From positions 13,300-77,299 of the forward strand of contig JBAXAF010000002.1 in the NCBI GenBank assembly GCA_037142675.1: a stretch of 64,000 bases of DNA. The letters are read 5' to 3'. The translations under genes were made by a program, and so were the position numbers. The stretch is from Candidatus Berkelbacteria bacterium. GTDB lineage: Bacteria > Patescibacteriota > UBA1384 > XYA2-FULL-43-10 > CAINNR01. The number at the start of each line of letters is the position of its first letter. Positions within the stretch are counted from its first letter, which is position 1. This document shows, one piece after another, positions 20,259 through 39,442 of the stretch. Under the pieces are notes generated by a model. The model saw only the letters and a program-made list of their open reading frames with translations, made no database searches and was not told the origin of the DNA.

Positions 20259-20335
20259 TGGTGCACGGGGCCAGATTCGAACTGGCGACATCTTCCTTGA
20301 GAAGGAAACGCTCTAACCAGCTGAGCTACCCATGC
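20259..20335 (-). tRNA. tRNA-Glu (anticodon CTC)
   Basis: reverse complement GCATGGGTAGCTCAGCTGGTTAGAGCG TTTCC TTCTCAA GGAAG ATGTC GCCAGTTCGAATCTGGCCCCGTGCACCA. Confidence 0.8.
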
Positions 20336-20539
20336 ACCGCGGACGATCAAGTTGCCAGGTGATCGCCCAGGCCTGTCGCTGGCTCAGGGGTGTGACCAGC
20401 AGAAGAATCTGGCGGGACGCTGAGCGCCCCAATTGCCAAGCAAAGCTTGGCGGACTGGATGCACTTCCCTTCGAACACCTTTTAGCCTGGCTTGACCAAT
20501 TAAGGCAGGCTTTCGAAGAGAACGACAGTCCTGATTGCT

Positions 20540-20764
20540 CTAAACAATATCTAAAGACTTAATCTTTAGCACTTTTGCAATACTTTGAAGCTTATCAATC
20601 GAAAGATTAACTTCACCACGTTCGATCTGAGCGTAATAGCTAGCATTGAGGTCTGCTTTTTCAGCCACCTCTGCCTGGGTAAGTCGAGCTTTTTCTCTAG
20701 CCTTTCTGACTTTATCACCCAATCTTTTCCGAGTTGTTTCGTTATTATCGCTCATGATGTTCAT
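20540..20764 (-). CDS. XRE-family helix-turn-helix transcriptional regulator
   Basis: 74 aa; LTQAEVAEKADLNASYYAQIERGEVNLSIDKL is a Cro/C1-type HTH. Confidence 0.8.
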   Translation of the reverse strand: MNIMSDNNETTRKRLGDKVRKAREKARLTQAEVAEKADLNASYYAQIERGEVNLSIDKLQSIAKVLKIKSLDIV

Positions 20765-20826
20765 ATACTAACAAAAAACTATCGAAATATCCATAAGTAA
20801 TTAAAAATATAATCAAAAGGAGGAAT

Positions 20827-21549
20827 ATGCCAGTAATGTCGCCGTCTTATAAAAGACACTTGGAAAATTTGCAAAATGAATTTGATGCGAAGAAATATCA
20901 TGAATTGCAAAAACTTGATCTTTTTAACGAGAAAACTTTTTACAAAGCTTTTGTTGGAGATATGCTTAATGCCAAAAAAGAGGTTATTATCCATAGCCCG
21001 TTTGTCTCGAAATTTAGAACGGATTTTCTCAAACCGACAATCGAAAAATTGATCGACCGGAACATTGACATCTTTATCTTTACCAGACCGATTGAAGAGT
21101 ACGATCCTACTATGCAACCCCAGATCGAGTGCGCGCTAAAACGCCTTGGAGAGCTTGGTGTCTGCATTTTCTACCCAGGACGATACATTCATCAAAAGGT
21201 GGCGATTGTTGACAGAGAAGTCCTATAGGAGGGCAGTTTGAATATTTTATCGCACAGAGCAAGTAACGAAATGATGAGGAGAACGGCTCACAGGGAATCC
21301 GCAACACAGGTCATGAACTATATCGGCCTGAATGATCAGATTGCGGCGGCTTATAAGTTGAAATACGAAAAATTGTACAAGGGGTTGATAAATACCTCCA
21401 AACAAAGTTTTAAGCTGAAAATGAAGATATTTTTGCTAGGACTGGCAGTTCCGATAATTGTATGGTTGATCGTCGGCTTGGTAAATATAAAACCTGTGCA
21501 AATATATACTTCGCTAGCAAATTCGATCATTGCATCATTGCAGCATTAA
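20827..21549 (+). pseudogene. PLD-family (HKD) nuclease interrupted by a single in-frame TAG inside the HxKx4Dx6GSxN motif; C-terminal TM helix
   Basis: ORFs 20827-21228 and 21238-21549 are in the same frame; read-through gives HQKVAIVDREVL*EGSLN, a perfect HxK(x)4D(x)6GSxN with the stop at a variable position. Confidence 0.6.
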
Positions 21550-21570
21550 AACTGTAACCACTCACTGTGT

Positions 21571-21654
21571 CGTCATTGCGAGGAGGTACGACGAAGCAAT
21601 CTGATCAAAATAGATTGCCGCGCCTCTCGCTTCACTCGATGACTCGCAATGACA
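21571..21654. repeat. MITE-like palindromic element, TGTCATTGCGAG...CTCGCAATGACA family (copy 1)
   Basis: terminal inverted repeats GTCATTGCGAGG / CTCGCAATGAC with internal GAAGCAATC...GATTGCCGCGCCT core; extended inverted repeats GTAACCACTCACTG/CAGCGAGTGGTTAC. Confidence 0.7.
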
Positions 21655-21922
21655 GCGAGTGGTTACTTAAAACTCTTCTTCTTTCAACTTTTCAAATCGC
21701 ATTTTGGAAAAATATTTCTGGCAATCTTTGTTATTACACCTCGCGAAACAACTTTTTTTGTCAGAAATCAAAATCGACGAGATAACTCCCGTTCGTGCGA
21801 CTACTTCGCCACATTTATCACAAACCTTATATTTCATAGATACACCTAGATTATCACAAAAATCCGAGCATTGGATACTCGGATTTTCTGCAGAAAAACA
21901 GCAGTAATATTTTTTAAGAATA

Positions 21923-23122
21923 TTATTCGTACTTTAGTGCGTCAAGTGCATTGATCTTGACCGCTCGATAAGCAGGGTATAGTCCGGTAGCTAAACCGAC
22001 TAGAATTGAGAATAATCCGACAATCAATTCAAGAGTCCAAGGTGTGACAAAAAGATTGATAGTATCAGCGCCAGCCCTTGAAGCAAAGACTGACAGCAGA
22101 GCATTTATGCCGGTTGCCATTAACAGTCCAAGAATTATGCCGAAGAAACCGCCAAAAGCACCGATCAAGAATGATTCAGTCACAAAGAGTTTGTAGATAT
22201 CAGCGTTTTGCATTCCAAGAGCTTTAAATAGACCGATCTCTCTAATTCTTTCAAGAAGATTAATTGTCAAAGTGTTGAATGTTCCAAGGGCAGCGACCAA
22301 AAGCGCTATCATGCCAAAAATCGCTAAGACTATCCTGAACAGAACGAATACTTGGCTAATCTGATCAACCGTATCTCCGACATATTCAGTCGATAATCCT
22401 AAATTTTCTAGTTGCTTGCGAAGTTCCGGAATGCTCTCTTTGGTGTCAGCTTTTAGTTTTAGGGAGATAAATTTATCGGCCCCATTTTTGGCAAGTAGCG
22501 AAATCGGCACATAAATGATTGGGCTTTGTTCATCTTTTTCGACTCCAACAATTTTCAGCGGAACTTTTTCGACAGTTTTAACCGAATCAGCATTGTCTGT
22601 GCGAATCTCTGCCGGAATAAGTAAATCTAAATCCATCGTTTGACCAATAACTTGATCCTCGTTCTCGCCTAGCAATTTCAAGGCAGCTCGGTTAATCATC
22701 GCTTGTCCATCTGCAAGTGGCAGAGAGCCTTTATCAGCACTAATGCTCGCCATTGGCCAGTAATCCTTACCTGCAGCGACAACGACGGTCTCAGCCGAGG
22801 TTCCGGTGCCATCACGACCAAGCCTACCGGCAATACTGTCAACTGGAACGACAGTTTGGACATGAGGAAGTGCTTCTGTCTTGTCAATCACGCTCTGATC
22901 AATTTTCAAAGTTTTTAAATTTGCCGATGGGATATCTAGAATAGTAAAAGCCTCAAAATTAGTCACCTGGCTTGTCACCAAACGCTCCAAGCCGTATCCC
23001 AGCGATACCAAGAAGATAATCGATCCAATACCAATCACAATTCCCAAAGTGGTAATTATTGTTCTGGATTTCTTTACCCATAGATTTTTTAGAGATAGCC
23101 GAACAATTACTTTTAATTTCAT
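21923..23122 (-). CDS. ABC transporter permease, FtsX/MacB/LolCE family
   Basis: 399 aa; N-terminal TM, large periplasmic domain, C-terminal 3 TM FtsX-like domain; ATGA-coupled to upstream ATPase. Confidence 0.75.
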   Translation of the reverse strand: MKLKVIVRLSLKNLWVKKSRTIITTLGIVIGIGSIIFLVSLGYGLERLVTSQVTNFEAFTILDIPSANLKTLKIDQSVIDKTEALPHVQTVVPVDSIAGRLGRDGTGTSAETVVVAAGKDYWPMASISADKGSLPLADGQAMINRAALKLLGENEDQVIGQTMDLDLLIPAEIRTDNADSVKTVEKVPLKIVGVEKDEQSPIIYVPISLLAKNGADKFISLKLKADTKESIPELRKQLENLGLSTEYVGDTVDQISQVFVLFRIVLAIFGMIALLVAALGTFNTLTINLLERIREIGLFKALGMQNADIYKLFVTESFLIGAFGGFFGIILGLLMATGINALLSVFASRAGADTINLFVTPWTLELIVGLFSILVGLATGLYPAYRAVKINALDALKYE

Positions 23123-23874
23123 ATCATTTTCTCCAAGTTCTTAAGCTCGCCCTCGAGCTGCGCTCGGAGTTCTCCCTTTTTCTCGGAGACGATTTTACCG
23201 TCTATCATGGCGATTGTTTTGCTCGCCAGAGGAAGATAAGCTAGGTTATGGGTAACCATTATCACGGTTCGTTTATAGATTTTATTGAGTTTTTGTAGCA
23301 GATCCATGACATAATCAGCGGAGTGCGTATCAAGATTGCCGGTCGGCTCATCGGCGACAATAATTGATGGATTATTAACCAGCGCTCGCGCCAAACCGAC
23401 CCTCTGTTGTTCACCACCGGAGAGCTGCATCGGCCATTTTTTGGCATACTGGCCCATTTCAACCTCGCCCAGTATTGCTTGTGCCTTAAACACCGAGTCA
23501 TGGTATCCTGATCCGGTTATCATTAGCGGAACCGCGACATTTTCAACTACATTGAGAGCTTTTGCCCAATACGATTGCTGGTAGACGATACCGAATTTGC
23601 TGGAGCGAACCTTGGCGCGTTGAGCCTGATTCAAAGAGCCCATATTCTTTTCATAGAGATAAACATTGCCCTTAGTTGGTGTTTCCAAGCCGACAATGTG
23701 ATTCAGAAGAGTTGATTTTCCACAACCTGATGGGCCATAAATAACAACAAAATCGCCTTCATTAATACTAACAGTAATGCCTTTTAAGACTTCTGTTTTT
23801 GTTGACTTGTCTGCCGAGACAAACTCTTTGAACAAACCATCAATTTTAATAATTTCTTTTTCCATTATTTCCAA
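23119..23874 (-). CDS. ABC transporter ATP-binding protein (MacB/LolD-like)
   Basis: Walker A GPSGCGKST, signature LSGGEQQRVGLARAL, Walker B IIVADEPTGNLD. Confidence 0.9.
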   Translation of the reverse strand: MEIMEKEIIKIDGLFKEFVSADKSTKTEVLKGITVSINEGDFVVIYGPSGCGKSTLLNHIVGLETPTKGNVYLYEKNMGSLNQAQRAKVRSSKFGIVYQQSYWAKALNVVENVAVPLMITGSGYHDSVFKAQAILGEVEMGQYAKKWPMQLSGGEQQRVGLARALVNNPSIIVADEPTGNLDTHSADYVMDLLQKLNKIYKRTVIMVTHNLAYLPLASKTIAMIDGKIVSEKKGELRAQLEGELKNLEKMI

Positions 23875-23878
23875 TTAT

Positions 23879-26800
23879 TCAATTATTTGGGTAAAACATC
23901 TTGCTTAAAAAGCCGAGTGATTTTTGCAGTGAATTAACAATAATGTCGACGACTGATTGTTGGATTTTACCGGTAATGGTTGTGGTGTCGTTCGAAGTTC
24001 CCATGTTCCCAGCGTTATCATGCGACACGGCCCGAAGGTGATAAATCTTTGATGGCTCAAGTCCGGAAGCAATGACTACATGGCTGGTCGAAAGCGCCAT
24101 ATCCTCTTTGGTTTTGAAATCATAATCAGATCCGCTGATTCCGGTTGAATATTCAATCTGACTTGTTGATGGTTCATCTGTTTGCCACGAAACAACTAAT
24201 TGCGCTTGTTGAGTTTGACCGAAGCCATTTGATTTTATTTCGACTGCAAGTGATGACAATTTTGGTGGTCGGGTGTCAAGCGGTGTTGTATAGGTGTTGG
24301 CATCTGACTCAACTTGATTTCCAAAGTTATCGACGCCTTTTGCTTTTAGAACATAAACCGATTTGTCCTGAAGGTCGGAAACCGTAATTTCGTGCGCTGT
24401 CTTATAATCAGCTTGCGAAGCGGTTTGTGCAGATGAGCCGATTGTATAAGAGACTATAGAAGTTGTCGCCACATTGGTATCCCAATTAAATTTCAGTGTC
24501 GTTGTCGGAGCGTCTTTAACTGTCTCAAAGCGGAAATTTGAGATCTTCGGCATGGTCAAAGTATTAAATGTATAATCATCCGAAATAAGCTGATTATTAT
24601 CCGTATCAGTCCCGATTATTTGAAAATGATATGTGGCCGAGTCGTCGAGGCTAGTCAAATTGATTGAGTGGCTAGTAGTTTGCGAACCGGATTTGTCGGA
24701 AATATTTCCACCATAGTTTGGAGTTTTTCCATAATTGATTGTCGAGGTGGCAATGGTTGTGGATGTCCAAGAAATTGTTGCGGCGTTCAAAGTGATATTT
24801 GAAACTTTTACATCGGAAATTTTCGGTCTTAGTCCGGTCTTAAACGAGTAGACATCGCTTCGTCCCTGGTTACCGTCTGAATCCTCCCACATTGCTTGGT
24901 AATAGTAGATCGTCTCAGGGTCAAGGCCAATGACTTCAACTGAGTGCTTTTTGCTCTTCTCCGGTTGACCAAATCCTTTGGCATTTTTCAAATCGTCTTT
25001 GCTTTTAGCAAAATAGCCGAAACTTGAACCTTCGCGGTCGGTTTCCCAAGAGATAGTAGCTGAAAATGCCTTTGGCGAAGCAGTTGGGGCCTCTGTTATG
25101 GCCGGTGGGTTAGTATAACGACCGGTCGGTGTCAAATTAACTATCGACGAGGCAACTGAATGTTGACCGGCATTGTCTTTCGATTTGACATAGTAATAGT
25201 ATTTTTGGCTTGTCAGGTCGGTGTCGGCATAAGTACTACCAGCGGTTGTGCCGACCGAGGAATAATTTGAGCCGTCAGTCGAACGATAAATTTCATAGCC
25301 GTTAAATCCGGTGCCGGTGTTTGCTGGCGCAATCCACTTTAGAGTTGCAGCAAACAGCGAAGCATCTCGGTTTGAAATATCAAAGATTTGCAAACTCGCC
25401 GGTGCGCCTGGCGCGGTGGTATTGGCAGTGAAGGTTGTTTTGGCGCAACCATCGGTGTCGGAGTTACCGGAGATTGCATTACAGGAATCAAATGAATAAT
25501 TTCCCGCTTCATCTTTGGCAACGATATAGAAGGTATTTTCTCCTTGTTGGGTGGCATATGGTCCGGCTGGAAGTATTCGGTCGGTCACAAACGAAGTATT
25601 CGACGGTGTCGGTAGCGCATTTATTGAGTAATAGTAACCCGATATTGTTCCGCTTCCGGTTGACGGCTCATCCCAGGAAAAAGCGAAACTGTTTGAATCA
25701 GACGATGACGGTGTGACAGTCAAATTCTTCGGTGCAGTCGGCGCGGTGTTATTGTAATAAAAGTTTGTCTGAACCGGAGTCGGATCGACATTGCCGGCGT
25801 TGTCAACGGCACGAAGATAAAAGATATTTGTGCCGGTTCGGTAAGCGACATCACCAAGTTCCAGTGATCCGCCGGTCATTGTTGCCGACCAATCGGAATA
25901 AATGCCGTCAGTTGCGCCTGTTTTGTATTGATAACCATAAATGCCACTTCCACCGGTGTCGCTCGCCATATCGGCACCCGAAGTCGGCCAGATGAAAGTA
26001 AAGGAATTGGTGCGCGTAAAGCCCGATGGTGAAACCGAAACATATTTTGGTGAATCCGGAGTTGCCGTTTCATATTTATAGGTGAAGATGGTTGAGCCGC
26101 TCCCGATATTACCGGCATTGTCTTTTGAGCTAATGCGTAAATAGTAAGTTGAGCCGGAAGCCAAAGAACCGGCGGTATAATTCAATCCTGTTTGGTAACT
26201 GCCGGCCGTATGCGGATCAGCAGAATTCGAAGTTCCGAAATAAACATAGTAACCGGCTGTGCCGGAAACCGTATTGGCGTGGCTGCCATCGGTGGCATCC
26301 GTGGAGGCGTTAAAAGTAAAATACGGAGCCGCGTAGTTGTGCCAATCGCCGGAGACAATATCGCTTCCACTAGAAGATTGACTTTTGGCAGTTGCCAAAG
26401 TCGGATCCGGTGGCGCCATATTATCCTGATCGTATTTGTAAGTGTATACGGTTGCAGCCGTAGAAATATTACCAGCGACATCTTGGGTTTTTATTCGCAA
26501 ATAATAGCTTTGATTATAGTTAGTCGATAAATCGCTTGCCGTGTAGTTTGTGGTAGTTTGCCAGACACTCGGATCGGCTGAAGCATTTGTACCGAAATAA
26601 ACATAATAACCGGCAACTCCCGACGGAGTTATCCCGTTTGCATTGTCACTTGGCGCAGTCCACGAAAAGTAAGGTGTTGGATAGTTATACCAAGTCGCCC
26701 CGTCAAGTGTCACGCCACTCGAAGTGCTTTTAGCGGTAATTGAGCTTGGATTATTTGGTGGTAAAAGATCTGGATTGTAATCAGGTGATGTAATGCCGGA

Positions 26801-27447
26801 AAAGTTAATCCAACCCCAGTCTTCGCTCCAGGCATAACCGGAGAAATTTCCTCCTGTAGCTATCACCACATTGGCGCCGGTCGGACTTGCATTAAAATCA
26901 ATATAGCCGCCGTTTAGCATTTTCGCCTTTCCTGATAAATGTCCGGAAGTGTCAGCGACTACCGGTCCCGAAGGATTGCTATCTGAGCCAAAGCTAATCC
27001 AGCCGAGATCGCCACCCCAGGCATAACCGCCCATCTGGCGAGAATAATTATCTATCGTCACATTGCTATGGTAAGTTCCTGCGTCAAAGTAAATTTTTTC
27101 GCCAGTGTTAACAATAGTTCCGGTAGTTCCCACAACCGCTACCGCACTGCCGGTAGCCTCAGAGTGCTTACTCGAGAGAAACATACCGCCAGCTACGATA
27201 ATAAAGCCGCAAAATATTGTGAATGCCGTCCAGCCGATTTGTTTGCGGTAAGGTTTTGCTTTTTTGGTAATCTTTGCGAGCCAACTATTAAATTCTGCCG
27301 GACTGGTAGAATCTTGATTTATACTTTGTCTTTTATGATTAACTTTTAGAGAAAATGACAAATGTTTTTTAAAATTACTAAAAACTTCACAAATCTTTTT
27401 TGTGATCTGTCGATAATTTCGATTAATTTTGGATATTAGCTTTTTCA

Positions 27448-27448
<1 letters not shown>
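23879..27448 (-). CDS. very large cell-surface protein with multiple FN3-like repeats (N-terminal membrane anchor)
   Basis: 1189 aa; repeated ~90-aa modules with YYxxxxxxDxAGNxS-type patterns; start codon overlaps RT stop (ATGA). Confidence 0.6.
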
Positions 27449-28642
<1,194 letters not shown>

Positions 28643-28666
28643 TTTTTTCTTGTCATTTGTTTTTCT

Positions 28667-28742
28667 TGTCATTGCGAGGCTTTGCGAAGCAATCTTTTTT
28701 GTGTTTTTTATGGGATTGCCACGCCTGCTGGCTCGCAATGAC
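28667..28742. repeat. MITE-like palindromic element, TGTCATTGCGAG family (copy 2), in the TR-RT spacer
   Basis: TGTCATTGCGAGGCTTTGCGAAGCAATC...GATTGCCACGCCTGCTGGCTCGCAATGACA. Confidence 0.7.
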
Positions 28743-28776
28743 ATACTCATTTTAGGTAGAAAAGGCATCCCCGTTG

Positions 28777-28906
28777 CCTGACACAGCGAACATTGTTGTT
28801 ATTGCCCTCTCCATTGTTGTTCGTGTTGCCATTATTCAACTGGACGTTCCACGCGTTAGATCCAACGCTGTTCTCCGTCGCCGACCAGTAGTTGTTGGAT
28901 GGCTGA
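28777..28906 (-). other. DGR template repeat (TR)
   Basis: 130 bp ~90% identical to VR (29499-29628); all 13 mismatches are at TR adenines on the coding (minus) strand; AAC/AAT codons in TR. Confidence 0.9.
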
Positions 28907-29083
28907 TGAAATGCTGCCGACTTTTGTTGCTCGGTTTTCTATCTCTGGCAAGCAGAGTAAGAAAACTTGTAATTATTCCTTTTGGAGCGGCAGCCGTAAC
29001 GGGGCGGTCGCACTCCCGATCATAACCCCGCACAGAGGCGAAGAATACGAGCGGCTCTTGCTATGCCTTTTCTACCTAAAATT

Positions 29084-29431
29084 TTAATGTGCTTTCGACC
29101 AATTCATCCATTTTTCGAACTGTTTCGATATTTCAATCAGTTGCTCAAAAAAGAATTTATAACTTTGTATTTTCATTGTCTTAAGCTCGTGCAGCATTCT
29201 GGCTTTAAACTTAATTCTCTCAATGATTACCAACCCCTCCTTTAATTTGTTTGTTTTGTCTTCAAGGTTATTGGCTTCAACAATTATGTCCATCAACTTT
29301 GTCAGCAATCCCTCTATTTCCTCGGCTAAGCCGTATTTGTAATCTTTCGGGAATCCTCGTGCCAACCGGAAGAAGTATAAATTTATGTCGTAAACGCTTT
29401 TGTAAATTGGAAGGTGGTCATATCTTGCCAT
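29084..29431 (-). CDS. avd: DGR accessory variability determinant (Avd)
   Basis: 115-aa helical protein starting MARYDHLPIYKSVYDINLYFFRLARGFPKDYKYGLAEEIE, positioned between target gene and TR as in canonical DGRs. Confidence 0.75.
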   Translation of the reverse strand: MARYDHLPIYKSVYDINLYFFRLARGFPKDYKYGLAEEIEGLLTKLMDIIVEANNLEDKTNKLKEGLVIIERIKFKARMLHELKTMKIQSYKFFFEQLIEISKQFEKWMNWSKAH

Positions 29432-29495
29432 AAAAATTTTCGCTCGACCGCCTTCGGCGGAAACAATAATAACTAAATAATCAAATTACCCTGCG

Positions 29496-30536
29496 TTACC
29501 TGACACAGCGAACATTGTAGTTACCGCCCTCTCCAAAGTTGCTCGTGTAGCCATTATTCAACTGGACGCCCCACGCGTAAGATCCAACGCTGCTCTCCGT
29601 CGCCGACCAGTAGTTGTAGGATGGCTGAGTCAGATTCCAGTAAGCACCATCAATGAAAGCCTGCATCAGCTCGTTTTGGGTTGGTAAACGCCAGACACCG
29701 GCACCGGCAGGGTTGGCACTGCTGTTGCAAAGCTGTGCAGCGGTTTTATTACCGACAGCCACATTGGCTGCGCCGGTAGCGTTCCATGTCCAAGAAGATC
29801 CGCCGGAAGCGACAAATTGAATTACTCCGGCATTATTCTTAAGGCATTGGCTCCAAGTTAAACCGGTTAGCGGGTCTTTATTGGTATTTCCGGCCCGATT
29901 ATCGTCACCGGTTACCGGAGACGAGTTGGTTGTAAAAGTTAAAGAACAGTTGTTGCCGGTCGTGCCACCGTCCGCCGGATCAAGCACATCGGTAGAGCAA
30001 GGGCCACCGGAAACTGGCGCATAATTACCGGAAATTTGCGTGCCATCATTTGACCAAGCGACTTTACCACTTTTAACATCGCCGGCTCCGGCAACCGTGC
30101 CGGCACCAGTCAAGGGATATGTTGCCGAAGGATATTGACCGGTTAAGCCAACGCCAAAGAGGGTTCCACTTTTGACTGTTCCAACTGAAAGATTCCCTAA
30201 ATTATATGTGCCGCTGGTTGCGCTGCGCGAACCGTTTGCGGTGAATGTTTTTGTAGATGAAACATCACCAGCCCCAGCCGTCGTGCTCGGTGTCCACTTG
30301 GCAGCAGTTTTGATACGGTTCCAATAAGTTCCCCAGTCTGGTGTGTCCGAGTCGGAACCGAAGGTTAAACCCGTAAGATCTGTATAAAGCGTTTTCATGC
30401 GTGAAGTTACTCCGGACTCCGGTGTGCTACCGGATTGTTCGGCAAAAACTTTGTAAGTTCCAAAAACTCCGGCGCAAAGTAGCACTGCCACAGCCGCGAT
30501 GATGAACTTATTCCTTTTTTTCATATTTGCCTCCAA
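29496..30536 (-). CDS. DGR target protein: secreted/surface protein with C-terminal DUF1566/C-type-lectin-fold variable region
   Basis: N-terminal signal/anchor; C-terminus GLTWSQC...WRLPTQNELMQAF...YWSATESSVGSYAWGVQLNNGYTSNFGEGGNYNVRCVR; VR at 29499-29628 matches TR. Confidence 0.85.
   Translation of the reverse strand: MEANMKKRNKFIIAAVAVLLCAGVFGTYKVFAEQSGSTPESGVTSRMKTLYTDLTGLTFGSDSDTPDWGTYWNRIKTAAKWTPSTTAGAGDVSSTKTFTANGSRSATSGTYNLGNLSVGTVKSGTLFGVGLTGQYPSATYPLTGAGTVAGAGDVKSGKVAWSNDGTQISGNYAPVSGGPCSTDVLDPADGGTTGNNCSLTFTTNSSPVTGDDNRAGNTNKDPLTGLTWSQCLKNNAGVIQFVASGGSSWTWNATGAANVAVGNKTAAQLCNSSANPAGAGVWRLPTQNELMQAFIDGAYWNLTQPSYNYWSATESSVGSYAWGVQLNNGYTSNFGEGGNYNVRCVR
29499..29628 (-). other. DGR variable repeat (VR) at the 3' end of the target gene
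   Basis: aligned to TR; VR has T,G,G,T,T,G,T... where TR has A on the coding strand (Y/S/G/F codons versus AAC/AAT). Confidence 0.9.
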
Positions 30537-30550
30537 TTATAAATTCTTTT

Positions 30551-30616
30551 TGTCATTGCGAAGTACGAAGCAATCTCATTCCACACAGATTGCCGCGCCT
30601 GCTGGCCCGCAATGAC
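30551..30616. repeat. MITE-like palindromic element, TGTCATTGCGAG family (copy 3), immediately upstream of target gene start
   Basis: TGTCATTGCGAAGTACGAAGCAATC...GATTGCCGCGCCTGCTGGCCCGCAATGACA. Confidence 0.7.
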
Positions 30617-30714
30617 AAACCCTAATCCTCGCAATGTAAAACTATAAATATTAAAAAAGACACTCAAAAGAGTGCTTGAATTACCAGTTCTAAATGCAAA
30701 AACGGAGAGCTCCT

Positions 30715-30745
<31 letters not shown>

Positions 30746-30990
30746 GAGTTCGGAACTTCGAACTCGAGCTAAAGCGCGCTCGTTACAGTTACGTTTAATG
30801 TTCCCTCCTCTATATAAAACACAGTCTTTGAAATGATTACTTATAATTATACATCAACTAAACCAATAATACATCATTTATTATTTTGTTGTAAATGCCT
30901 AGAAATCAAATTAATAGCAACTGGGATTTTCTTAGGAATTATCGTATCAATTTGGCACTTTAATCGTATCATTTTGATACGAGAAAGAGA

Positions 30991-31866
30991 TTAATTGCTT
31001 TGCCCGATTTTCCAGACTCCCTTTTCTCGAAATGCCGCCAGAGTTTGACGTTTTGCCATATTTAGAAGGACATTCAGGGGCTGTTTTGTATTTTTTGCGT
31101 ACTCAGAAAGTGAAATAATTTTGAGACCTTCTAAATAAGCAATTCTTTTATGTAAAGATTCCAATAGTGCAAGATAGAGAACTTTTTCCATGTCTGCAGT
31201 TTTTTTGTTTTCTTTATATTCCTGAAAGGTTTTGTAATATAGATGTTTCTCTTTATCACGAATAATCACAGGTGGAAAGCCAATCTGTAGCAGGAGATAA
31301 TTAATTAAAACCCTGCCAATTCGGCCATTACCATCGCAAAATGGATGAATATGCTCGAATTCCAAATGAAATTTAGCAATCTTTTCTAGAAAATAAGACA
31401 TGTGATCGCCGGAATAATCAAGAAGTGCTGATTCAACCATAGTTGCCACATGTTCCGGTGCTGGCGCAATGTGCGTTCCAACTCGGACATATTCTCCGGC
31501 AGATCTAAATATACCGGCAATTTTATCATCAATTCCAGCAATCAACATCTTGTGTAAAAACAAGATTAATTCTTCATCCAAATCACGGCTAAGAGTTTTG
31601 TCCTTGATATATTCAAAAACTCTAGCTAAATTTTTAGCTTCATAAACTTCTCGAACAGATACTTTGCGCGCAACTTCAAGTTCTAATAAAATCTTTTCAG
31701 TTTCCTCAATGGTGAGGGTTGAATTTTCGATAGCATTTGAGTTGTAGACTGATTCCGGAATCTCGGCTTCAGCTAGCATATCCAAAAGAGATCCTTTGCC
31801 GATTTTCAAAGTATCATACTGCTTTTTTAAGTCATTAATTTTTTGTTTGATATCTTTATTGATCAT
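30991..31866 (-). CDS. Fic/DOC family protein (AMPylase-type)
   Basis: Fic motif HPFCDGNGRIGR; 291 aa. Confidence 0.8.
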   Translation of the reverse strand: MINKDIKQKINDLKKQYDTLKIGKGSLLDMLAEAEIPESVYNSNAIENSTLTIEETEKILLELEVARKVSVREVYEAKNLARVFEYIKDKTLSRDLDEELILFLHKMLIAGIDDKIAGIFRSAGEYVRVGTHIAPAPEHVATMVESALLDYSGDHMSYFLEKIAKFHLEFEHIHPFCDGNGRIGRVLINYLLLQIGFPPVIIRDKEKHLYYKTFQEYKENKKTADMEKVLYLALLESLHKRIAYLEGLKIISLSEYAKNTKQPLNVLLNMAKRQTLAAFREKGVWKIGQSN

Positions 31867-31899
31867 GGTTAAATCTTATCATATTAACGATATATTGTC

Positions 31900-31950
31900 A
31901 ATACACCGTGAATATAGTCTACTTTGAGTATATATTCACGGTGTTTCTGA
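31900..31950. promoter_or_regulatory. 14-bp-arm inverted repeat between the NTase gene end and fic start (operator or terminator)
   Basis: ACACCGTGAATATA-gtctactttgag-TATATTCACGGTGT. Confidence 0.4.
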
Positions 31951-32003
31951 TTATTCAATGACATTTAGACTAGCTATAGAGGGCTTATTTTCGTTATATG
32001 GTG

Positions 32004-32648
32004 CTATTTATTAACTTTTGCCAAATAATTTGTCACGGTTTCTGAGAGATACTTTTTAACTAATTCGAAACTAATATCATCATCGTGCTTAAAGAGAATT
32101 GGTTCTTCCAGAATATCATCAAAATACACTAGGCTTTTAAGGATTAGGTTAACGTCAATTGTAGGAAACTTTTCTTTTGTTAATTTGAAAAGCTCTTCAA
32201 GGCTTATTTTGTGAAGAATAAAATACAAATCAACATAATCTTTAAGAACAGATCGGCTTGTAATTGCTGAGAGCTTCATAGCACCAATGTCTTCGAGGGA
32301 GGCCATTTTAAAATTATCTTCATCCAACAGTGGATTAATCGGTTTGTATGGAAAAGCAAAGAAGCTAATTTTAATTGTGTCGTCAATGATAAATGTTAGA
32401 GTATCTTTTTCTTCCTGAATTTTTGCAATTTGATGATTCTGAAAAATTTGCTCGACTTTTTTGGTCAAGTCTTCAGTAGAAAAAGATTGTTCAGAAAAGA
32501 AATCAAAATCAATACTATCTCGATGCCCCAGTTGCAATGCTAGAGCGGTGCCACCGGCAAGATAAAAATCATCTTTGAAAACTTTAAAAAGAGGTAGAAT
32601 ATTTATACGCTTTTGGTCTAGAATATCCCAATAAAATTGTTTATCCAT
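32004..32648 (-). CDS. nucleotidyltransferase of the AbiEii/DUF1814-like family (putative toxin/defence component)
   Basis: N-terminal LAGGTALALQLGHRDSIDFDFF resembles the GGTAL...RxSxDxD NTase motif of AbiEii-type proteins. Confidence 0.5.
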   Translation of the reverse strand: MDKQFYWDILDQKRINILPLFKVFKDDFYLAGGTALALQLGHRDSIDFDFFSEQSFSTEDLTKKVEQIFQNHQIAKIQEEKDTLTFIIDDTIKISFFAFPYKPINPLLDEDNFKMASLEDIGAMKLSAITSRSVLKDYVDLYFILHKISLEELFKLTKEKFPTIDVNLILKSLVYFDDILEEPILFKHDDDISFELVKKYLSETVTNYLAKVNK

Positions 32649-32928
32649 GAAGTACTCTTTCCAGCTTAGAAATGGGTTTGATATTTAAATAAAGCGACCA
32701 AAGAGCTAGAGACTTTTTGTTCCATTGACCAGTTGGAATCTGCTCGGCTATTTTTTGTATCTCATCCAAACTATATGTTTCGAACAACCAATCTGTAGCA
32801 TCTTCGGTGCCGTAATTTAAAACCTGGGCAATAATTAATTTTTTGTGTAATTCTAAATCGATCTTATTGATGTCATAAGACCAGAGAACATTTGCAACAG
32901 ATTTTGGAATTTTTTCGTTGGTTGTCAT
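32641..32928 (-). CDS. small partner protein of the nucleotidyltransferase (putative antitoxin/regulator)
   Basis: 95-aa ORF overlapping the NTase start by 8 nt. Confidence 0.35.
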   Translation of the reverse strand: MTTNEKIPKSVANVLWSYDINKIDLELHKKLIIAQVLNYGTEDATDWLFETYSLDEIQKIAEQIPTGQWNKKSLALWSLYLNIKPISKLERVLHG

Positions 32929-33004
32929 ACCTAAAAATTACTTGTCTAACAGATATATTATAGCATATTTGGGGCTATTTATATAGGGGAAAATGATATT
33001 AATC

Positions 33005-33817
33005 CTATTCCCAAATCTCTCCGGTAATACCATTTACTTTGATCTTGTCGATAGTCGTAAATTGTATACGAAGATCGCTCGGGTTGTCCTCGTCTTCTAA
33101 AAGTCCTTTGGTCATTCGTTTGGCATAGATCATGGTGGCTAGAGTCGGGCAAACAATCATGATAATCGGGAAGGTCTTGGAAATTTCATCCCATTCGTAG
33201 CCATTGTAAAGCTCTATAAAATTTTTGACTTGGCGCCTGATCGAATAACGAGGCAGAGTCGGCGCAATTATCGCAAAAAGAAAATATTCCGATATTGTCC
33301 GTTTGCTGGCTTTCTTTTTCTTGAGTCTTTTAACCACCGGATCCACTTTATATTCAGTCAAAAAGTTAAAACGATACTCGGAATTAGCCAGGTCCGTTGC
33401 GGTAGCAATCAAATAGGAGAGTTCATTTTCTTCACTAGACTCTCGGCTTCTGTTTGCCGCAATTTTCAAACCCAAAGCAATCTCCCCGACGAGCTGGCAT
33501 TTTTCGATAAAATCGGTTGAGCGGTCTTTAAGCCTATAAAACTTTCTTAGAACCTCGATCGAGCAATCATCTTGAGTTTTTAAGAATCTGATTCCATTTA
33601 ATCCCAGGTAATAGATCGCCGGTTTGGTATTTTCTCCAAACTTATTTGAATAGATTCGATTAAGGTATTCTTTTTGTGTTAGGTCTTTTAACCAGTCGTT
33701 GATTCTTTTGTGATATTTATGATTGAGGAATGCTTGAATTTGTTTTCGATCTAAGAATTTGTATTTGTATAGTAGTTTGAGTATTTCTTGTTGTTTTGTA
33801 GTTATTTTGTTGGTCAT
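33005..33817 (-). CDS. putative replication-relaxation / wHTH mobile-element protein
   Basis: N-terminal QQEILKLLYKYKFLDRKQIQAFL wHTH-like segment; mobile-element context. Confidence 0.3.
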   Translation of the reverse strand: MTNKITTKQQEILKLLYKYKFLDRKQIQAFLNHKYHKRINDWLKDLTQKEYLNRIYSNKFGENTKPAIYYLGLNGIRFLKTQDDCSIEVLRKFYRLKDRSTDFIEKCQLVGEIALGLKIAANRSRESSEENELSYLIATATDLANSEYRFNFLTEYKVDPVVKRLKKKKASKRTISEYFLFAIIAPTLPRYSIRRQVKNFIELYNGYEWDEISKTFPIIMIVCPTLATMIYAKRMTKGLLEDEDNPSDLRIQFTTIDKIKVNGITGEIWE

Positions 33818-34094
33818 TGTTTTGAATTAGTTGTTTATTTAATTTGCAATTTACCATTACTACCTACACCGACCAAACCTATATTTGTAAAGGTAAGTGA
33901 TACAAGTCGCATATCTTTTAAGGCTAAATTAAACATATTTCAGTATCAGTTCACTGATACAATTAAATACCTGATTATTCGGCTTGTCAACAGTCTTATT
34001 TAAACTTTTACCCTCTTGACATTGTGAATATAACAATAGTATACTATGAATATAATCACAATAAGGAGGGTATACGGGGACTTCTCATCTTCAA

Positions 34095-34415
34095 TTGATA
34101 GGCCAGAAAAACACCTTGTTTTCTACGGTGGAAATCAATCCCTCTGCCCATATTAAAGCTGAGAGGCCAAGGCCAGAAGCCTTAATTGCTACACATAGCA
34201 AAACCTTTGAGAGTGCCTTGAGCAGGATCTTCCCTGGCAAACAAGAGGAAACCAGGATCCAAAAGGCGCGCCTAATTATGGGAGATGATGTCAAAGATTT
34301 ATCGGATGAAGATTTAGAGGTTTTCCTTACCGAGTTTCAATATCTGATCGACTGCTGGTTAGACGAATACGAAAAACAAGTTTTCAATAACAAAACATTA
34401 AGAGAATTAATTTAA
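34095..34415 (+). CDS. hypothetical protein upstream of recombinase
   Basis: 106-aa ORF, 15-nt gap to recombinase start. Confidence 0.3.
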   Translation: MIGQKNTLFSTVEINPSAHIKAERPRPEALIATHSKTFESALSRIFPGKQEETRIQKARLIMGDDVKDLSDEDLEVFLTEFQYLIDCWLDEYEKQVFNNKTLRELI

Positions 34416-34429
34416 TAAAGGAGGGATGA

Positions 34430-36145
34430 ATGGACTTTCCATCACCAATCAAAGGGGAGCAATCAGAAAAAGCGGTCGTTTATATTCGAGTATCGACCGA
34501 AGAGCAAGTCGAAAACTATTCGCTAGGCACTCAAGAAGAGATTTGCAGAAAAGAAGCCGATAAACGAAAGCTCGAGGTTGTGAAGGTTTTTCGCGAAGAG
34601 GGACGTTCCGCAAAGACGATTACCGGACGACCTACACTAATTGAAATGCTCGAGTATTGCCGAAAACACAAAAGAGAAATCAGTTCGGTTATTGTTTACC
34701 GACTGGATCGAGTTTCCCGTCAAACATCTGATTATTTGGTGATTAGAAGAAAACTGGTGGAATGCGAAATAGAACTAATTTCAGCCACAGAGCCAACCGG
34801 CAACAGCCCGACAGAAAAGTTTGTTGAAACTATGTTGGCCGGCTTTGCCCAGATGGATAACGATATTCGAAGCGAACGAGCCAAAAATGGGCTTAGAGCC
34901 AGATTCCAGGCTGGCTTAACCAGTTATGTAACGATGGGCTATGATAATAAAAGTGGCTATACAACAAAAAATCCCGAAACATTTGATAAGCTTCAAGCTT
35001 CTTGGCATTTATTTTCCACAGGCACGAAAACACTGCGAAATATTGCCAATATTCTAACTGAACAAGGAATTGCCCAAAGACATAAAGGCGGGCGTATGCT
35101 CCCACAGCAGGTTAACAGAATGTTTCGCAATAAATTCTATGCCGGTTATGTCATCTCTAAAAAATATGGGCAAGAAGTCCAAGGCCAGCATCCACCAATG
35201 GTTACCGAGGAATTATTCTACAAAGTCCAAGCGATTCTAGATGGTAGAAACCACAACATCTCAAGGCCGCTAGCAAAGCGCCATCGAGACAACCCGAATT
35301 TTCCCCTGCGCCGTATCGTCAAATGCGAAATTTGCGGTACTTCTTTTACTGGAGGGAAAAGCAAAGGCAAGCGCGAATACTATGGCTATTACTTTTGCCG
35401 AAACAGATGCAAAGAATCGAATGTCGCTTCGGAAAAGATAACCCATGATACCACCGACTATTTGGGTAAAATATCCCTAACAGAAAAAACCGCCAAATTG
35501 TTTAACGCTTTTCTGCGAAGAACTTATTTTAGCAGGGCTAAAACCCTACAAAAAAGACGAGAGCAGGCCGATGACGAGCTAAAAAAGTCATATGAAACAC
35601 GCCAGGCATTAATCGATAAGAATCTGACCGGCATATACTCCGACGAGATCTTTAAGGAACAAAACAATATGTTAGAGGCAAAAATAAAGAGTATTCAATT
35701 CACTAAAAACGATGAATTACTTGATAAATATGCTCTTGGGCCGATTACTCAATTTGTTGAAACCAAGCTAACCGATCTGCCGAAAACCTTTGAGACATCT
35801 ATAAAAAAAGATCCTGAACCGGATCTCGGACAGATCAGAATGCTCCTGTGTTCGATATTCCCCTCTGGAATGCCATATGGCCGAAATGGCTATTCGAACA
35901 CAGAAATCAGCCCATTTTTCAGAGCGATTTTGGACTTGCAGCCCAAGAATTCTAATCTTGTCTCGTTTGGCGGAGAGAGTGTGATTCGAACACACGAGGA
36001 TAGGTATCCATGGGTTTACCACCCATTCCCTTTGACCACTCGGGCATCTCTCCGCTTAAGACTTACAGCGAGCCGTGCCGGAGCCCAACCCGACAATCAT
36101 CTCCCCGTGACGTCGTGTCACAGCCTTGATGACATCAAACATTGA
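34430..36145 (+). CDS. large serine recombinase (integrase); 3' end of ORF runs antisense through tRNA-Tyr (C-terminal ~60 aa probably spurious extension)
   Basis: resolvase catalytic domain AVVYIRVSTEEQ, recombinase domain, zinc ribbon CEICG...CRNRC, coiled-coil; no stop codon until 36145. Confidence 0.8.
   Translation: MDFPSPIKGEQSEKAVVYIRVSTEEQVENYSLGTQEEICRKEADKRKLEVVKVFREEGRSAKTITGRPTLIEMLEYCRKHKREISSVIVYRLDRVSRQTSDYLVIRRKLVECEIELISATEPTGNSPTEKFVETMLAGFAQMDNDIRSERAKNGLRARFQAGLTSYVTMGYDNKSGYTTKNPETFDKLQASWHLFSTGTKTLRNIANILTEQGIAQRHKGGRMLPQQVNRMFRNKFYAGYVISKKYGQEVQGQHPPMVTEELFYKVQAILDGRNHNISRPLAKRHRDNPNFPLRRIVKCEICGTSFTGGKSKGKREYYGYYFCRNRCKESNVASEKITHDTTDYLGKISLTEKTAKLFNAFLRRTYFSRAKTLQKRREQADDELKKSYETRQALIDKNLTGIYSDEIFKEQNNMLEAKIKSIQFTKNDELLDKYALGPITQFVETKLTDLPKTFETSIKKDPEPDLGQIRMLLCSIFPSGMPYGRNGYSNTEISPFFRAILDLQPKNSNLVSFGGESVIRTHEDRYPWVYHPFPLTTRASLRLRLTASRAGAQPDNHLPVTSCHSLDDIKH
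35968..36053 (-). tRNA. tRNA-Tyr (anticodon GTA), type II with long variable arm
   Basis: reverse complement GGAGAGATGCCCGAGTGGTCAAAGGGA ATGGG TGGTAAA CCCAT GGATACCTATCC TCGTGTGTTCGAATCACAC TCTCTCCGCCA; D-arm pattern as in bacterial tRNA-Tyr; position 33 is G (atypical). Confidence 0.7.
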
Positions 36146-36537: not shown

Positions 36538-36626
36538 CGTCATTGCGAGGAGCGATTAAGCAACGTGGCAATCTTTTAAATAGAGCTTGCCACGCCTCAG
36601 CCGATGGCTGATGGCTCGCAATGACA
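36538..36626. repeat. MITE-like palindromic element, TGTCATTGCGAG family (copy 4)
   Basis: TCGTCATTGCGAGGAGCGATTAAGCAACGTGGCAATC...GCTTGCCACGCCTCAGCCGATGGCTGATGGCTCGCAATGACA. Confidence 0.7.
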
Positions 36627-36784: not shown

Positions 36785-39442
36785 ATGGCAATCGATGCAA
36801 AAAAGATGGTGTACTTCTTCGGCGGGAAAAAGGCCGAAGGAAACGGCAAAATGAAAGATCTCTTGGGTGGCAAAGGTGCAAACCTGGCCGAAATGGTTAA
36901 CTCTGGTGTCCCAGTTCCTCCAGGCTTTACTATTACCACAAAAGTTTGCAACCACTTTTCAGACAATAAGGGCAAGATGCCTGCTAGGTTCGACAAAGAA
37001 TATACTGAGGCTATCGCAAAGATGGAAAAAGCCGTTGATAAAAAATTCGGCGACCTAGAGAATCCACTTTTAGTTTCCGTTCGTTCCGGCGCCAAATTCT
37101 CGATGCCAGGAATGATGGATACCATTCTAAACTTAGGCCTTAATGACAAAACTGTTGCAGCTCTGGCTGCAAAATCTGGCAACCGCCGATTTGCCCTAGA
37201 CGCTTACAGAAGATTTATTCAAATGTTCTCTGGAGTTGTGCTAGAAATCGACAAAGATCTATTTGAAGAAATTTTGGATTACGTTAAAGTTGAAGCCAAA
37301 GTTAAATTGGACACAGAGCTAAAAGAAGATGATCTAGAAATCGTGATCAAAAAATATAAAGATTTAGTTAAAAAGCAAATAGGAAAAGAATTTCCAACCG
37401 ATCCTATGACTCAGTTGGCTATGGCCAGAGACGCGGTTTTTAAAAGCTGGAACAATCCACGAGCTTTCACTTACAGACGAATGAATAAGATTGCCGATGA
37501 TTTAGGCACTGCCGTTAATGTCCAGGCAATGGTTTTTGGCAATATGGGCAGTGACTCAGCAACTGGTGTTGGTTTTACTAGAAACCCTTCAACTGGAGTT
37601 AATGAATTTTACGGCGAGTACCTAACCAACGCCCAAGGAGAAGACGTAGTGGCCGGAATTCGCACACCAAAACCAATTATAGAATTGAAGAAAGAAATGC
37701 CTGCGGCTTTCAAAGAGCTCAAAGATATTACTGACAACCTAGAAAAACACTACCGTGATATTCAAGACTTTGAATTTACTATTGAGCAAGGCGTACTTTA
37801 TATGTTGCAAACTCGCGTCGGCAAACGAACAGCCCACGCTGCAATCAAAATTGCTGTTGATATGGTTAAAGAGGGCATGATTACCAAAGAAGAAGCAATT
37901 ATGAGAGTTGAGCCAGAAGGCTTGAACCAACTGCTCCACCCGGTTTTTGATGCCAAAGTGAGTTATGATGCTGTTGCCACTGGACTCCCAGCATCCCCTG
38001 GCGCTGCCGTTGGCAAAGTAGTATTTACTTCTGAAGACGCAGTTAAAAAAGCGGACGAAAAAGTTATTTTGGTTCGAACTGAAACTTGTCCGGATGATAT
38101 TTCCGGAATGGAAGTTGCACAAGGAATTCTAACTGCCAGAGGTGGAATGACCTCACACGCCGCCGTAGTCGCTCGTGGCATGGGTAAATGCTGCGTTGCC
38201 GGCTGTGAAGATATTAAGGTAGATGAAAAAGCTGGCAAATTAATCATCGCTGGAAAAACTATTAAAGAAGGCGACTATATTTCTATTAACGGTTCAACCG
38301 GTGAAGTTATTCTTGGCCAGGTTCCAACAATCGAGCCAACACTTTCTGGCGACTTTGGAACACTCATGAGCTGGGTTAACAAAACTCGCCGCCTGGGAGT
38401 TCGTTCCAACGCCGATATTCCACGAGATGCAAAAACCGCTGCCGGTTTCGGTGCTGAAGGAATTGGTCTTTGCCGAACTGAGCACATGTTCTTTGATGCT
38501 GCCAGATTGCCTCTAATGCAAAAAATGATTCTAGTTGATACCGAAGAAGACAGGCGCAAGGCGTTAGAAAAACTTTTGCCTTTCCAAAAAGAAGACTTCA
38601 AAGGATTATTTGAAGAAATGAAAGGCTACTCTGTCACCGTTCGTCTGCTTGACCCACCACTTCATGAATTTTTGCCAAAGACCAAAGAGGAAGCCAAAGA
38701 GCTTTCAAAGAAAATTGGCATTGACGAAAAAATTATTTGGAGCAAAACGCAGGACTTGCATGAATTCAACCCAATGCTTGGTCATCGCGGTTGCCGTTTG
38801 GGAATTACCTATCCGGAAATCACCGAAATGCAAACTAAGGCGATCATTTCCGCCGCTTGCGAACTTTTGAAAAAGAAAAATGTCAAAGTAGTGCCAGAAA
38901 TTATGGTGCCACTAGTTGGGAATGTTTCTGAGTTCAAAGATCAAAAAGATATTATCGACGCTACCGCTGCCGAGACAATGAAAGAGTATGGCGTTAAAGT
39001 CAAATACATGGTTGGTACCATGATCGAAGTTCCACGAGCCGCCGTTACCGCCGATGAAATAGCCGAGGTAGCCGACTTCTTCTCCTTTGGAACTAATGAC
39101 CTGACACAGATGACCTTGGGTTTCTCCCGCGATGATGCCGGCAAGTTCATTAAAGTTTACATGGACAAAAAGATCTTTGCCTCCGATCCATTCCAAACAC
39201 TAGACCAAGAAGGCGTTGGCCAGTTGGTGAAAATGGGCATTGAAAAAGGCCGAAGCGTCAAAGAAAAACTAAAGATTGGTATATGCGGCGAACATGGTGG
39301 AGACCCGGATTCAGTTAAGTTCTGCCACCGCGCCGGCATGGATTATGTTTCCTGCTCACCATACCGCGTACCAATCGCTTGTCTTGCCGCCGCCCAAGCA
39401 GTGGTTGAAGAGAGTGATGGGACCAGCTACACAAACAAATAG
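36785..39442 (+). CDS. ppdK: pyruvate, phosphate dikinase
   Basis: 885 aa; PEP-utilising enzyme domains, phosphohistidine region GGMTSHAAVVARG, TIM-barrel CRTEHMFF. Confidence 0.95.
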   Translation: MAIDAKKMVYFFGGKKAEGNGKMKDLLGGKGANLAEMVNSGVPVPPGFTITTKVCNHFSDNKGKMPARFDKEYTEAIAKMEKAVDKKFGDLENPLLVSVRSGAKFSMPGMMDTILNLGLNDKTVAALAAKSGNRRFALDAYRRFIQMFSGVVLEIDKDLFEEILDYVKVEAKVKLDTELKEDDLEIVIKKYKDLVKKQIGKEFPTDPMTQLAMARDAVFKSWNNPRAFTYRRMNKIADDLGTAVNVQAMVFGNMGSDSATGVGFTRNPSTGVNEFYGEYLTNAQGEDVVAGIRTPKPIIELKKEMPAAFKELKDITDNLEKHYRDIQDFEFTIEQGVLYMLQTRVGKRTAHAAIKIAVDMVKEGMITKEEAIMRVEPEGLNQLLHPVFDAKVSYDAVATGLPASPGAAVGKVVFTSEDAVKKADEKVILVRTETCPDDISGMEVAQGILTARGGMTSHAAVVARGMGKCCVAGCEDIKVDEKAGKLIIAGKTIKEGDYISINGSTGEVILGQVPTIEPTLSGDFGTLMSWVNKTRRLGVRSNADIPRDAKTAAGFGAEGIGLCRTEHMFFDAARLPLMQKMILVDTEEDRRKALEKLLPFQKEDFKGLFEEMKGYSVTVRLLDPPLHEFLPKTKEEAKELSKKIGIDEKIIWSKTQDLHEFNPMLGHRGCRLGITYPEITEMQTKAIISAACELLKKKNVKVVPEIMVPLVGNVSEFKDQKDIIDATAAETMKEYGVKVKYMVGTMIEVPRAAVTADEIAEVADFFSFGTNDLTQMTLGFSRDDAGKFIKVYMDKKIFASDPFQTLDQEGVGQLVKMGIEKGRSVKEKLKIGICGEHGGDPDSVKFCHRAGMDYVSCSPYRVPIACLAAAQAVVEESDGTSYTNK

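Follow-up and report, generated by a model that had tools for sequence, protein, structure and literature searches.

The window analysed here, a stretch of 64,000 nucleotides from a Candidatus Berkelbacteria bacterium (assembly GCA_037142675.1, contig JBAXAF010000002.1, positions 13,300 to 77,299 of the forward strand), contains a PLD-family gene whose reading frame is interrupted by an amber codon (TAG, 21226..21228) in the middle of the HKD catalytic motif and stays open beyond it. Is this stop codon an error of assembly, a sense codon under an altered genetic code, a device for conditional expression, or a plain lesion? The evidence described below points, very probably, to a recently fixed loss-of-function nonsense allele of a PLD-family gene on a mobile element, which as a phenomenon is ordinary. 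All positions refer to the window; related loci recovered from other assemblies are designated L001, L002 and so forth.

The gene is located on the plus strand. Its N-terminal part (20827..21228) comprises 133 codons, encodes the motif residues H122, K124 and D129, and ends prematurely in the TAG; an AGGAGG ribosome-binding site lies within 20765..20826, and gene callers applied to other assemblies report this fragment with 130 or 133 amino acids (aa). Past the TAG the frame is open for 106 more codons, up to a TAA at 21547-21549. This co-frame remainder (21229..21549, residues 135-240) encodes the GSxN residues, the end of the PLD core, a predicted helical stalk and a C-terminal transmembrane (TM) helix; it is presumably not translated, or reached only through re-initiation at TTG 21238. 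Direct reading across the stop yields H122-Q-K124-VAIV-D129-REVL-stop-E-G136-S137-L-N139, i.e., the pattern HxK(x)4D(x)6GSxN (21190..21243), which bears out the initial annotation of an in-frame TAG within an HKD motif. All residues of the motif are thus encoded, with the TAG at codon 134, and the window gene is a disrupted member of the family. When the two parts are fused to 240 aa, the match to Pfam PLDc_2 extends from residue 47 to residue 165 and so includes the stop (E=1e-7, 32.2 bits), whereas the N-terminal open reading frame (ORF) alone scores 19.9 bits (E=7e-4), under the curated cut-off of 27 bits; the same family (PF13091) is present in all listed homologues. The fused product also aligns end to end, at 91% identity and with no frameshift, with intact 240-aa proteins of Berkelbacteria and Patescibacteria, so the two halves are contiguous and their co-frame arrangement is not due to chance. 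Divergent to the PLD gene, on the minus strand, lies the XRE-family helix-turn-helix (HTH) regulator gene that had been noted next to it (20540..20764; Pfam HTH_3, E=1.6e-14), which is intact, encodes 74 aa and itself ends in TAG.

A protein search covering 5.8 billion clusters recovered 312 relatives of the PLD protein. The best of these are intact, 236-241 aa long and at most 91% identical over the full length, and their named sources are Candidatus Berkelbacteria or Patescibacteria. Regarding the catalytic motif, which is intact in 74 aligned homologues, residues H122, K124, D129, G136 and N139 are invariant. The initial annotation had placed the stop at a non-conserved position; this does not hold, because the stop falls on Trp134 in two alignments, one of 23 and one of 74 sequences, and of the latter 73 have W there and one has Y. 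The signature 'ILWEGSLNIL' around this codon is in fact better conserved than any other block of the protein. The nucleotide sequences obtained for the four nearest relatives (L002-L005) all have TGG at codon 134. Given the conservation of W134 and the TGG of the nearest relatives, the lesion is a single G>A transition at 21227 that turned the ancestral TGG into TAG.

A single-base difference from all homologues is also the expected look of a sequencing or assembly error with TGG as the true codon, a possibility that had been raised initially. Three proteins, namely the 133-aa product of the interrupted gene, the XRE protein and the ABC permease encoded nearby, were therefore looked up by exact sequence, which retrieved further contigs from European Nucleotide Archive (ENA) and Joint Genome Institute (JGI) assemblies. 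The same TAG was found in all 11 further contigs that cover codon 134 (L001, L090, L096, L098-L105), and since these come from different assemblies the stop is real. Over the XRE-PLD region (20540-21700) the amber-bearing contigs are at least 99.8% identical to the window, yet they are not mere duplicates of it: some carry single-nucleotide polymorphisms (SNPs) in the XRE gene (20561, 20652, 20684, 20693), the element in them meets three different left flanks, and L001 is a raw MEGAHIT contig with a Nextera adapter retained at its end. The protein collection contained no otherwise-identical intact allele, the nearest intact protein having 91% aa identity; nor was a closer intact allele present among the listed matches of a metagenome scan, among which the amber-bearing JGI contigs did not appear either. 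An error thus has next to no probability. The amber allele is fixed in a near-clonal population and is older than the small diversity of that population. Two further observations concern the same contigs. The four SNP positions all fall within the 225-bp XRE gene and none within the 723-bp PLD ORF, the substitution at 20652 (T/G, D38A, near the HTH) being common to four amber contigs. The adapter of L001 (ERZ27300127 k141_301545) is an untrimmed Nextera transposase sequence, ATGTGTATAAGAGACAG, at positions 1-17 of the deposited contig.

Regarding the age of the lesion, the ratio of nonsynonymous to synonymous substitution rates (dN/dS; Nei-Gojobori) was calculated between the window PLD gene and its intact relatives. 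It is 0.07-0.18 for the part before the stop and 0.06-0.08 for the part after it, summarised for both halves as 0.06-0.10, compared with 0.04-0.11 between intact copies. Past the stop, the codons changed only in the window comprise 8 synonymous changes and 4 conservative replacements, where a ratio of about 3 to 9 would be expected under neutrality (binomial p=0.003). The low dN/dS on both sides of the stop and the 8:4 changes indicate that almost the whole history of the window lineage passed under purifying selection and that the stop is young; a long-standing pseudogene was rejected on the dN/dS values. With no frameshift, no second stop and low dN/dS on either side of the TAG, the gene is otherwise undegraded, as was first stated, and of the three explanations then offered a very recent nonsense mutation is the favoured one, the dN/dS being like that of intact copies. 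The dN/dS of the XRE gene is 0-0.10. Its synonymous divergence (dS) from the relatives is 0.11-0.14, several-fold under the 0.37-0.99 that these pairs show for the PLD gene, a sign that the left end may be mosaic or recombining.

The amber allele is not the only disruption in the family. One locus (L121) has a TGA at the invariant R64, another type (L172/L179) has a TGA at R151, and L012 has decayed further, with TGA, TAA and TAA stops, loss of the catalytic HxK and replacement of GS by SS. In the L089-type element a 3' deletion has left 113 aa of the PLD protein, and the XRE protein beside it is 100% identical to that of the window. This sister element, 92% identical to the one in the window, was seen at six loci (L089, L091-L093, L095, L097), in all of which the XRE protein is 100% identical and the PLD protein ends after 111-113 aa, ahead of the HKD motif. 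Across 160 loci from genome and metagenome scans a TAG-specific pattern was not found, the other disruptions being TGA or TAA stops or deletions. Knockouts that recur with any stop codon and spare the regulator fit the loss, through ordinary mutation, of a costly effector, and they argue against a regulatory device specific to TAG. They are suggestive of a nuclease that is costly and recurrently lost.

The alternatives in which the TAG would be decoded fare poorly within the window. Altered codes do exist in some lineages of Patescibacteria, UGA being reassigned in Gracilibacteria and Absconditabacteria, which would speak for a genome-wide reassignment of TAG to a sense codon. However, a greedy ORF call of the window gave 75 ORFs, and 17 of them have TAG as their terminator, among them the XRE gene, ppdK, a GrpE-like gene and pilus genes. 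A scan of the window for long co-frame ORF pairs revealed no other real gene split by a TAG; the one other long co-frame TAG pair, at 38275, is antisense to ppdK and hence no split gene. ARAGORN detected six tRNAs in the window, none with a CUA anticodon, and gene calls for L003, L004 and L089-L098 give the XRE protein the same end, after 74 aa. TAG as a regular terminator, no further in-frame TAGs and no cognate tRNA are the opposite of what a reassigned codon would leave in the window; genome-wide recoding, which the initial annotation had already judged unlikely, has hardly any chance of being correct. The idea, also put forward initially, that the gene is expressed by amber suppression or read-through is likewise without support, given the lack of a tRNA-CUA in the window and the TGA and TAA of the other knockouts in the family. 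In its most explicit form it states that the full-length nuclease is made only in the presence of a UAG-decoding suppressor tRNA, e.g., from a TAG-recoded phage, so that the TAG would serve as an infection-triggered switch of a toxic effector. Phages that reassign TAG by means of suppressor tRNAs are documented (bioRxiv 10.1101/2021.08.26.457843; PMC9523058), the ORF shows no damage past the stop, and the allele has been maintained across many samples and three flanking contexts. Yet the other single-nonsense alleles of the family are TGA and the decayed copy combines TGA with TAA, the documented phage suppressors insert Gln at TAG (PMC9523058) whereas position 134 is W, and once Y, in 74 sequences, and an intact downstream ORF is predicted equally well by a young pseudogene. 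Such conditional expression is very improbable. Even less credence is due to its strongest version, in which the amber codon would be a selected switch and not a lesion, the suppressor tRNA of an incoming TAG-recoded phage leading to production of a membrane-tethered toxic nuclease. If this were true, the phage's own recoding machinery would trigger abortive infection. The intact downstream ORF and the occurrence of the allele in many samples and contexts point toward it; the TGA and TAA knockouts of the family and the strict W/Y at position 134 point away from it.

Another possibility is that the gene has been split into two products, both of which would be made: the 133 aa in front of the stop and a C-terminal fragment whose translation restarts at TTG 21238. 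The two would either reassemble into an active enzyme or take on a new role, e.g., as a dominant-negative partner of other HKD nucleases. Through the G>A change the former GGGAGG has become AGGAGG, a perfect Shine-Dalgarno sequence that precedes this in-frame TTG by 5 nt (21227-21240), and the gene calls of several assemblies include a 103-aa ORF that begins there. However, the GGAGG core, and in L003 the TTG as well, are already present in intact relatives, so that the arrangement is probably coincidental. The cut would moreover interrupt a beta-strand that is predicted for residues 132-136 in the catalytic core, and the re-initiated fragment would be devoid of W134, E135, the invariant G136 and S137 of GSxN. 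A functional split gene is accordingly quite improbable. This leaves the young nonsense allele as the preferred reading of the locus.

What the intact protein does was approached through an AlphaFold2 model of the homologue P0001, which is intact and 91% identical (mean pLDDT 83). In this model a PLD core extends to about residue 165 and is predicted to be followed by one long helix (168-221) and a short tail. The C-terminal TM segment (residues 201-219; 21427-21483), made up of the last turns of this helix, is strongly hydrophobic, with a mean hydropathy of 2.9 over 19 residues, with four K/R residues before and one after it. The top Foldseek matches of the model were 4ggk, 4ggj, 6ehi, 4gel and 1byr (probability 1.00, target TM-score 0.55-0.67; E of about 1e-8 for 4ggk and 4ggj and 4e-8 for 6ehi), the closest folds being mouse and fly Zucchini/MitoPLD, Helicobacter pylori NucT and Salmonella Nuc. 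The model thus has a Nuc-like fold with one HKD motif per chain. By sequence, the only match of the PLD protein in the PDB was MitoPLD, which was weak (E=0.006). The best PADLOC profiles were MkoC (over 969-1109 of 1136, E=1e-11), MkoB (2e-7) and DrmC (2e-5); NCBIfam and PHROGs yielded no family match. On the model, the intact protein is most likely a tail-anchored, cytoplasm-facing HKD phosphodiesterase, and most likely a nuclease.

The closest structural counterparts, Nuc (Salmonella pKM101), NucT (Helicobacter pylori) and Zucchini/MitoPLD (PLD6), resemble the protein in having one HKD motif per chain and a core of about 150 residues, and Zucchini/MitoPLD also in a single-helix membrane tether with a cytoplasmic catalytic domain, which is predicted for the protein described here. 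They differ from it in sequence (14-22% identity) and in being neither paired with an XRE gene nor carried by a mobile element in the way found here, nor truncated inside the motif as in the window copy. MitoPLD and Nuc differ further in their termini: the MitoPLD anchor is N-terminal and Nuc has a signal peptide, whereas here the anchor is C-terminal and follows a helical stalk of about 35 residues.

Both genes recur together. The XRE protein also has a capH-like match in PADLOC, and the two genes are separated by a divergent intergenic region of 62 bp (20765..20826) that presumably contains the promoters and an operator. This region is nearly identical in L002, L003, L004, L016 and L089; it contains no inverted repeat at seed length 6, and a simple promoter scan of it gave only weak matches to consensus sequences. 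In a scan of species-representative genomes, 435 PLD relatives were found, of which the best 80 loci were kept, the closest being 88% identical to the query P0001. Most loci of the long form (about 240 aa; Berkelbacteria and other Patescibacteria) have an XRE homologue on the opposite strand 54-110 bp upstream, and the genes around the pair vary between loci. Several metagenome-assembled genomes contain two to five such loci each. A short form of 147-190 aa, which is devoid of the tail, occurs in Gammaproteobacteria, Levybacteria and others, and many of its loci have a small convergent XRE gene (67 aa) directly downstream. The same PLD domain, with the signature LWEGSLNILSQ, also forms the C-terminal part of proteins of about 716 and about 1050 aa (L050-L055, L060), the set of stand-alone short forms and large proteins comprising L050-L055, L060 and L056-L088. 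In two loci (L007 and L073) a P-type ATPase gene adjoins the pair. Neither literature searches on XRE+PLD systems and on PLD nucleases of Patescibacteria nor PADLOC yielded, respectively, a description of an XRE-PLD module or a whole-system match for it. In intact copies the divergent XRE protein probably represses the PLD promoter.

Several known systems share parts of this arrangement. Mokosh MkoC and MkoB and DISARM DrmC have a PLD domain and provide the best PADLOC matches, but only at the level of the domain; relatives with the 'ILWEGSLNILSQ' signature occur as the C-terminal domain of the proteins of about 1050 aa and of 716 aa mentioned above. The protein here differs in having 240 aa and no helicase or ATPase domain, and partner genes of Mokosh or DISARM do not adjoin the PLD gene in the window, L003, L004, L005 or L007. 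Membership in Mokosh was rejected, as only the PLD domain of MkoC/MkoB was matched and no helicase is among the called neighbours in these five contexts. DISARM was rejected as well, the match to the DrmC domain being weak (2e-5) and the neighbours being XRE, a Zn-ribbon protein and an ABC transporter. BfiI, SauUSI and END nucleases are PLD-family HKD nucleases too, and such enzymes are used against foreign DNA (PMC12191111); here, however, a DNA-recognition domain and a nearby methyltransferase gene are lacking, and the protein has a TM tail instead of a sensor domain. The small XRE protein does match the PADLOC 'control protein' profiles and thereby resembles the C-proteins of restriction-modification systems (E=1.5e-14). 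As this likeness is confined to the XRE protein and no methyltransferase gene adjoins the pair in the window or in four homologous contexts, membership in a restriction-modification system was rejected. Type II toxin-antitoxin systems with XRE, HipB or MqsA-like antitoxins likewise combine a small HTH protein with a potentially toxic enzyme; several paralogous pairs in some genomes, the location on mobile elements and a regulator that outlasts the enzyme gene are further likenesses. The genes here are not a co-transcribed, bicistronic operon, however, but divergent and 54-110 bp apart in the long form and convergent in the short form, which is not the layout of a type II pair.

The initial annotation overlooked that an integrative mobile element carries the gene pair as cargo. 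An 8-bp attachment-site core, TTGGCGGA, lies on the plus strand at 20447..20454 and marks the left end of the element; it is a direct repeat of the core at 35967..35974 (plus strand), which forms the 3' end (..TCCGCCA) of a tRNA-Tyr gene. This tRNA (GTA; 35968..36053, minus strand), the target of integration, was detected by ARAGORN, and its acceptor stem is intact in the alignment. The gene for a large serine recombinase (34430..36145, plus strand; Pfam Resolvase, 1.3e-30; Recombinase, 1.3e-13; Zn_ribbon_recom) crosses the right attachment site with its 3' end. Homology to each related locus stops exactly at 20447/20448 (among them L003, L004, L089, L098, L099 and L101). In L089 and L092 (92% identical) window position 20447 is joined directly to window position 35974 through the core TTGGCGGA, and the serine recombinase gene adjoins the XRE gene. 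In metagenomes this attP-like joined-ends junction beside the recombinase was observed in L089, L092 and L095, and a junction with unrelated DNA in L091, L093 and L097; one independent contig (L100 plus L108) covers both ends in the arrangement of the window. A serine recombinase at one end, direct repeats of which one lies in the 3' end of a tRNA gene, joined ends in the sister element and alternative left flanks of the window-type element identify 20447-35974 as an integrative element of about 15.5 kb in tRNA-Tyr, with XRE-PLD as its leftmost cargo. Regarding the integration target, the Rfam tRNA model at its gathering threshold reported only a tRNA-Glu (20262-20335) between 19800 and 37000, in contrast to the intact tRNA-Tyr of ARAGORN.

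Taken as a mechanism, the G>A transition at 21227 converted TGG, the codon of the nearly invariant Trp134, to TAG and thereby placed a stop midway through the HKD motif of a PLD-superfamily protein of 240 aa. The protein is truncated after H122, K124 and D129, giving a product devoid of GSxN, of the last part of the catalytic core, of the stalk and of the membrane anchor; such a fragment of 133 aa should be able neither to form the active site nor to reach the membrane, which would make the allele null. The intact protein is predicted to be a single-HKD, Nuc/Zucchini-like phosphodiesterase that dimerises into one active site, its cytoplasmic catalytic domain being tethered to the membrane by the C-terminal helix, and the XRE protein presumably represses the divergent PLD gene. 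The likeliest role of the intact pair would be that of a nuclease for defence, exclusion or addiction that is costly to its carrier, and this cost would explain both the recurring knockouts and the fixation of the amber allele. Several points weigh against this account. The choice of a nuclease over an enzyme with a lipid substrate comes only from the fold and the PADLOC domain matches. Among roughly 170 loci there are only about 5 independent knockouts. The PLD ORF is 100% identical in all 11 other amber contigs, the four SNP positions being all in the XRE gene, and the population is too clonal to tell if the PLD ORF is still under selection. Finally, the amber allele may retain some residual read-through or re-initiation.

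The element carries other genes and repeats besides the pair. Between its ends lie a Zn-ribbon ORF, an ABC transporter, a 1189-aa fn3-repeat protein, a diversity-generating retroelement (DGR), a Fic protein, an AbiEii/DUF6922 pair and a Replic_Relax protein. The Fic-domain protein (HPFxxGNGR) and the AbiEii nucleotidyltransferase with its DUF6922 partner, at 30991-32928, are further modules of the toxin or defence type, so that the element has several of these. The DGR (27448-30536) includes a bAvd gene (29084-29431) and a target gene of the Lcl_C type (29496-30536), and its reverse transcriptase is encoded in two pieces, as ORFs that lie in different frames (28094-28768 and 27448-28131). Beside the junction of these ORFs is a perfect (CT)20.5 dinucleotide repeat (28134-28174). 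Slippage there could switch the gene on and off; alternatively, this could be a second disrupted gene. A family of palindromic repeats whose arms contain GTCATTGCGAG is located at 21554-21666, 28667-28743, 30552-30616 and 36539-36625, with 9 arm matches compared with 0.9 expected by chance. The first copy, of 113 bp, lies just past the stop codon of the PLD gene; it is absent from the syntenic loci L003 and L004 and therefore resembles an insertion of a miniature inverted-repeat transposable element. In L104, which is otherwise identical, 28 mismatches to window positions 26438-26565 are clustered in 128 bp at the end of the contig, within the gene for the 1189-aa fn3-repeat surface protein; either hypervariability or a repeat domain in this region, or else a chimeric end of the contig, could account for them.

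No new biology is required for the amber codon, an ordinary nonsense mutation of young age, and the case shows that look-ups across assemblies can tell a real, fixed stop from an assembly error. The parts worth following are the XRE-PLD module, which is uncharacterised, and its carrier element. The repeated knockouts in which the regulator stays intact suggest that the nuclease is costly to its carrier. The pair is a widespread module that is present in several copies in some of the small genomes of Patescibacteria and travels on mobile elements, and it is a reasonable candidate for a membrane-associated nuclease module of defence or addiction in ultra-small bacteria.

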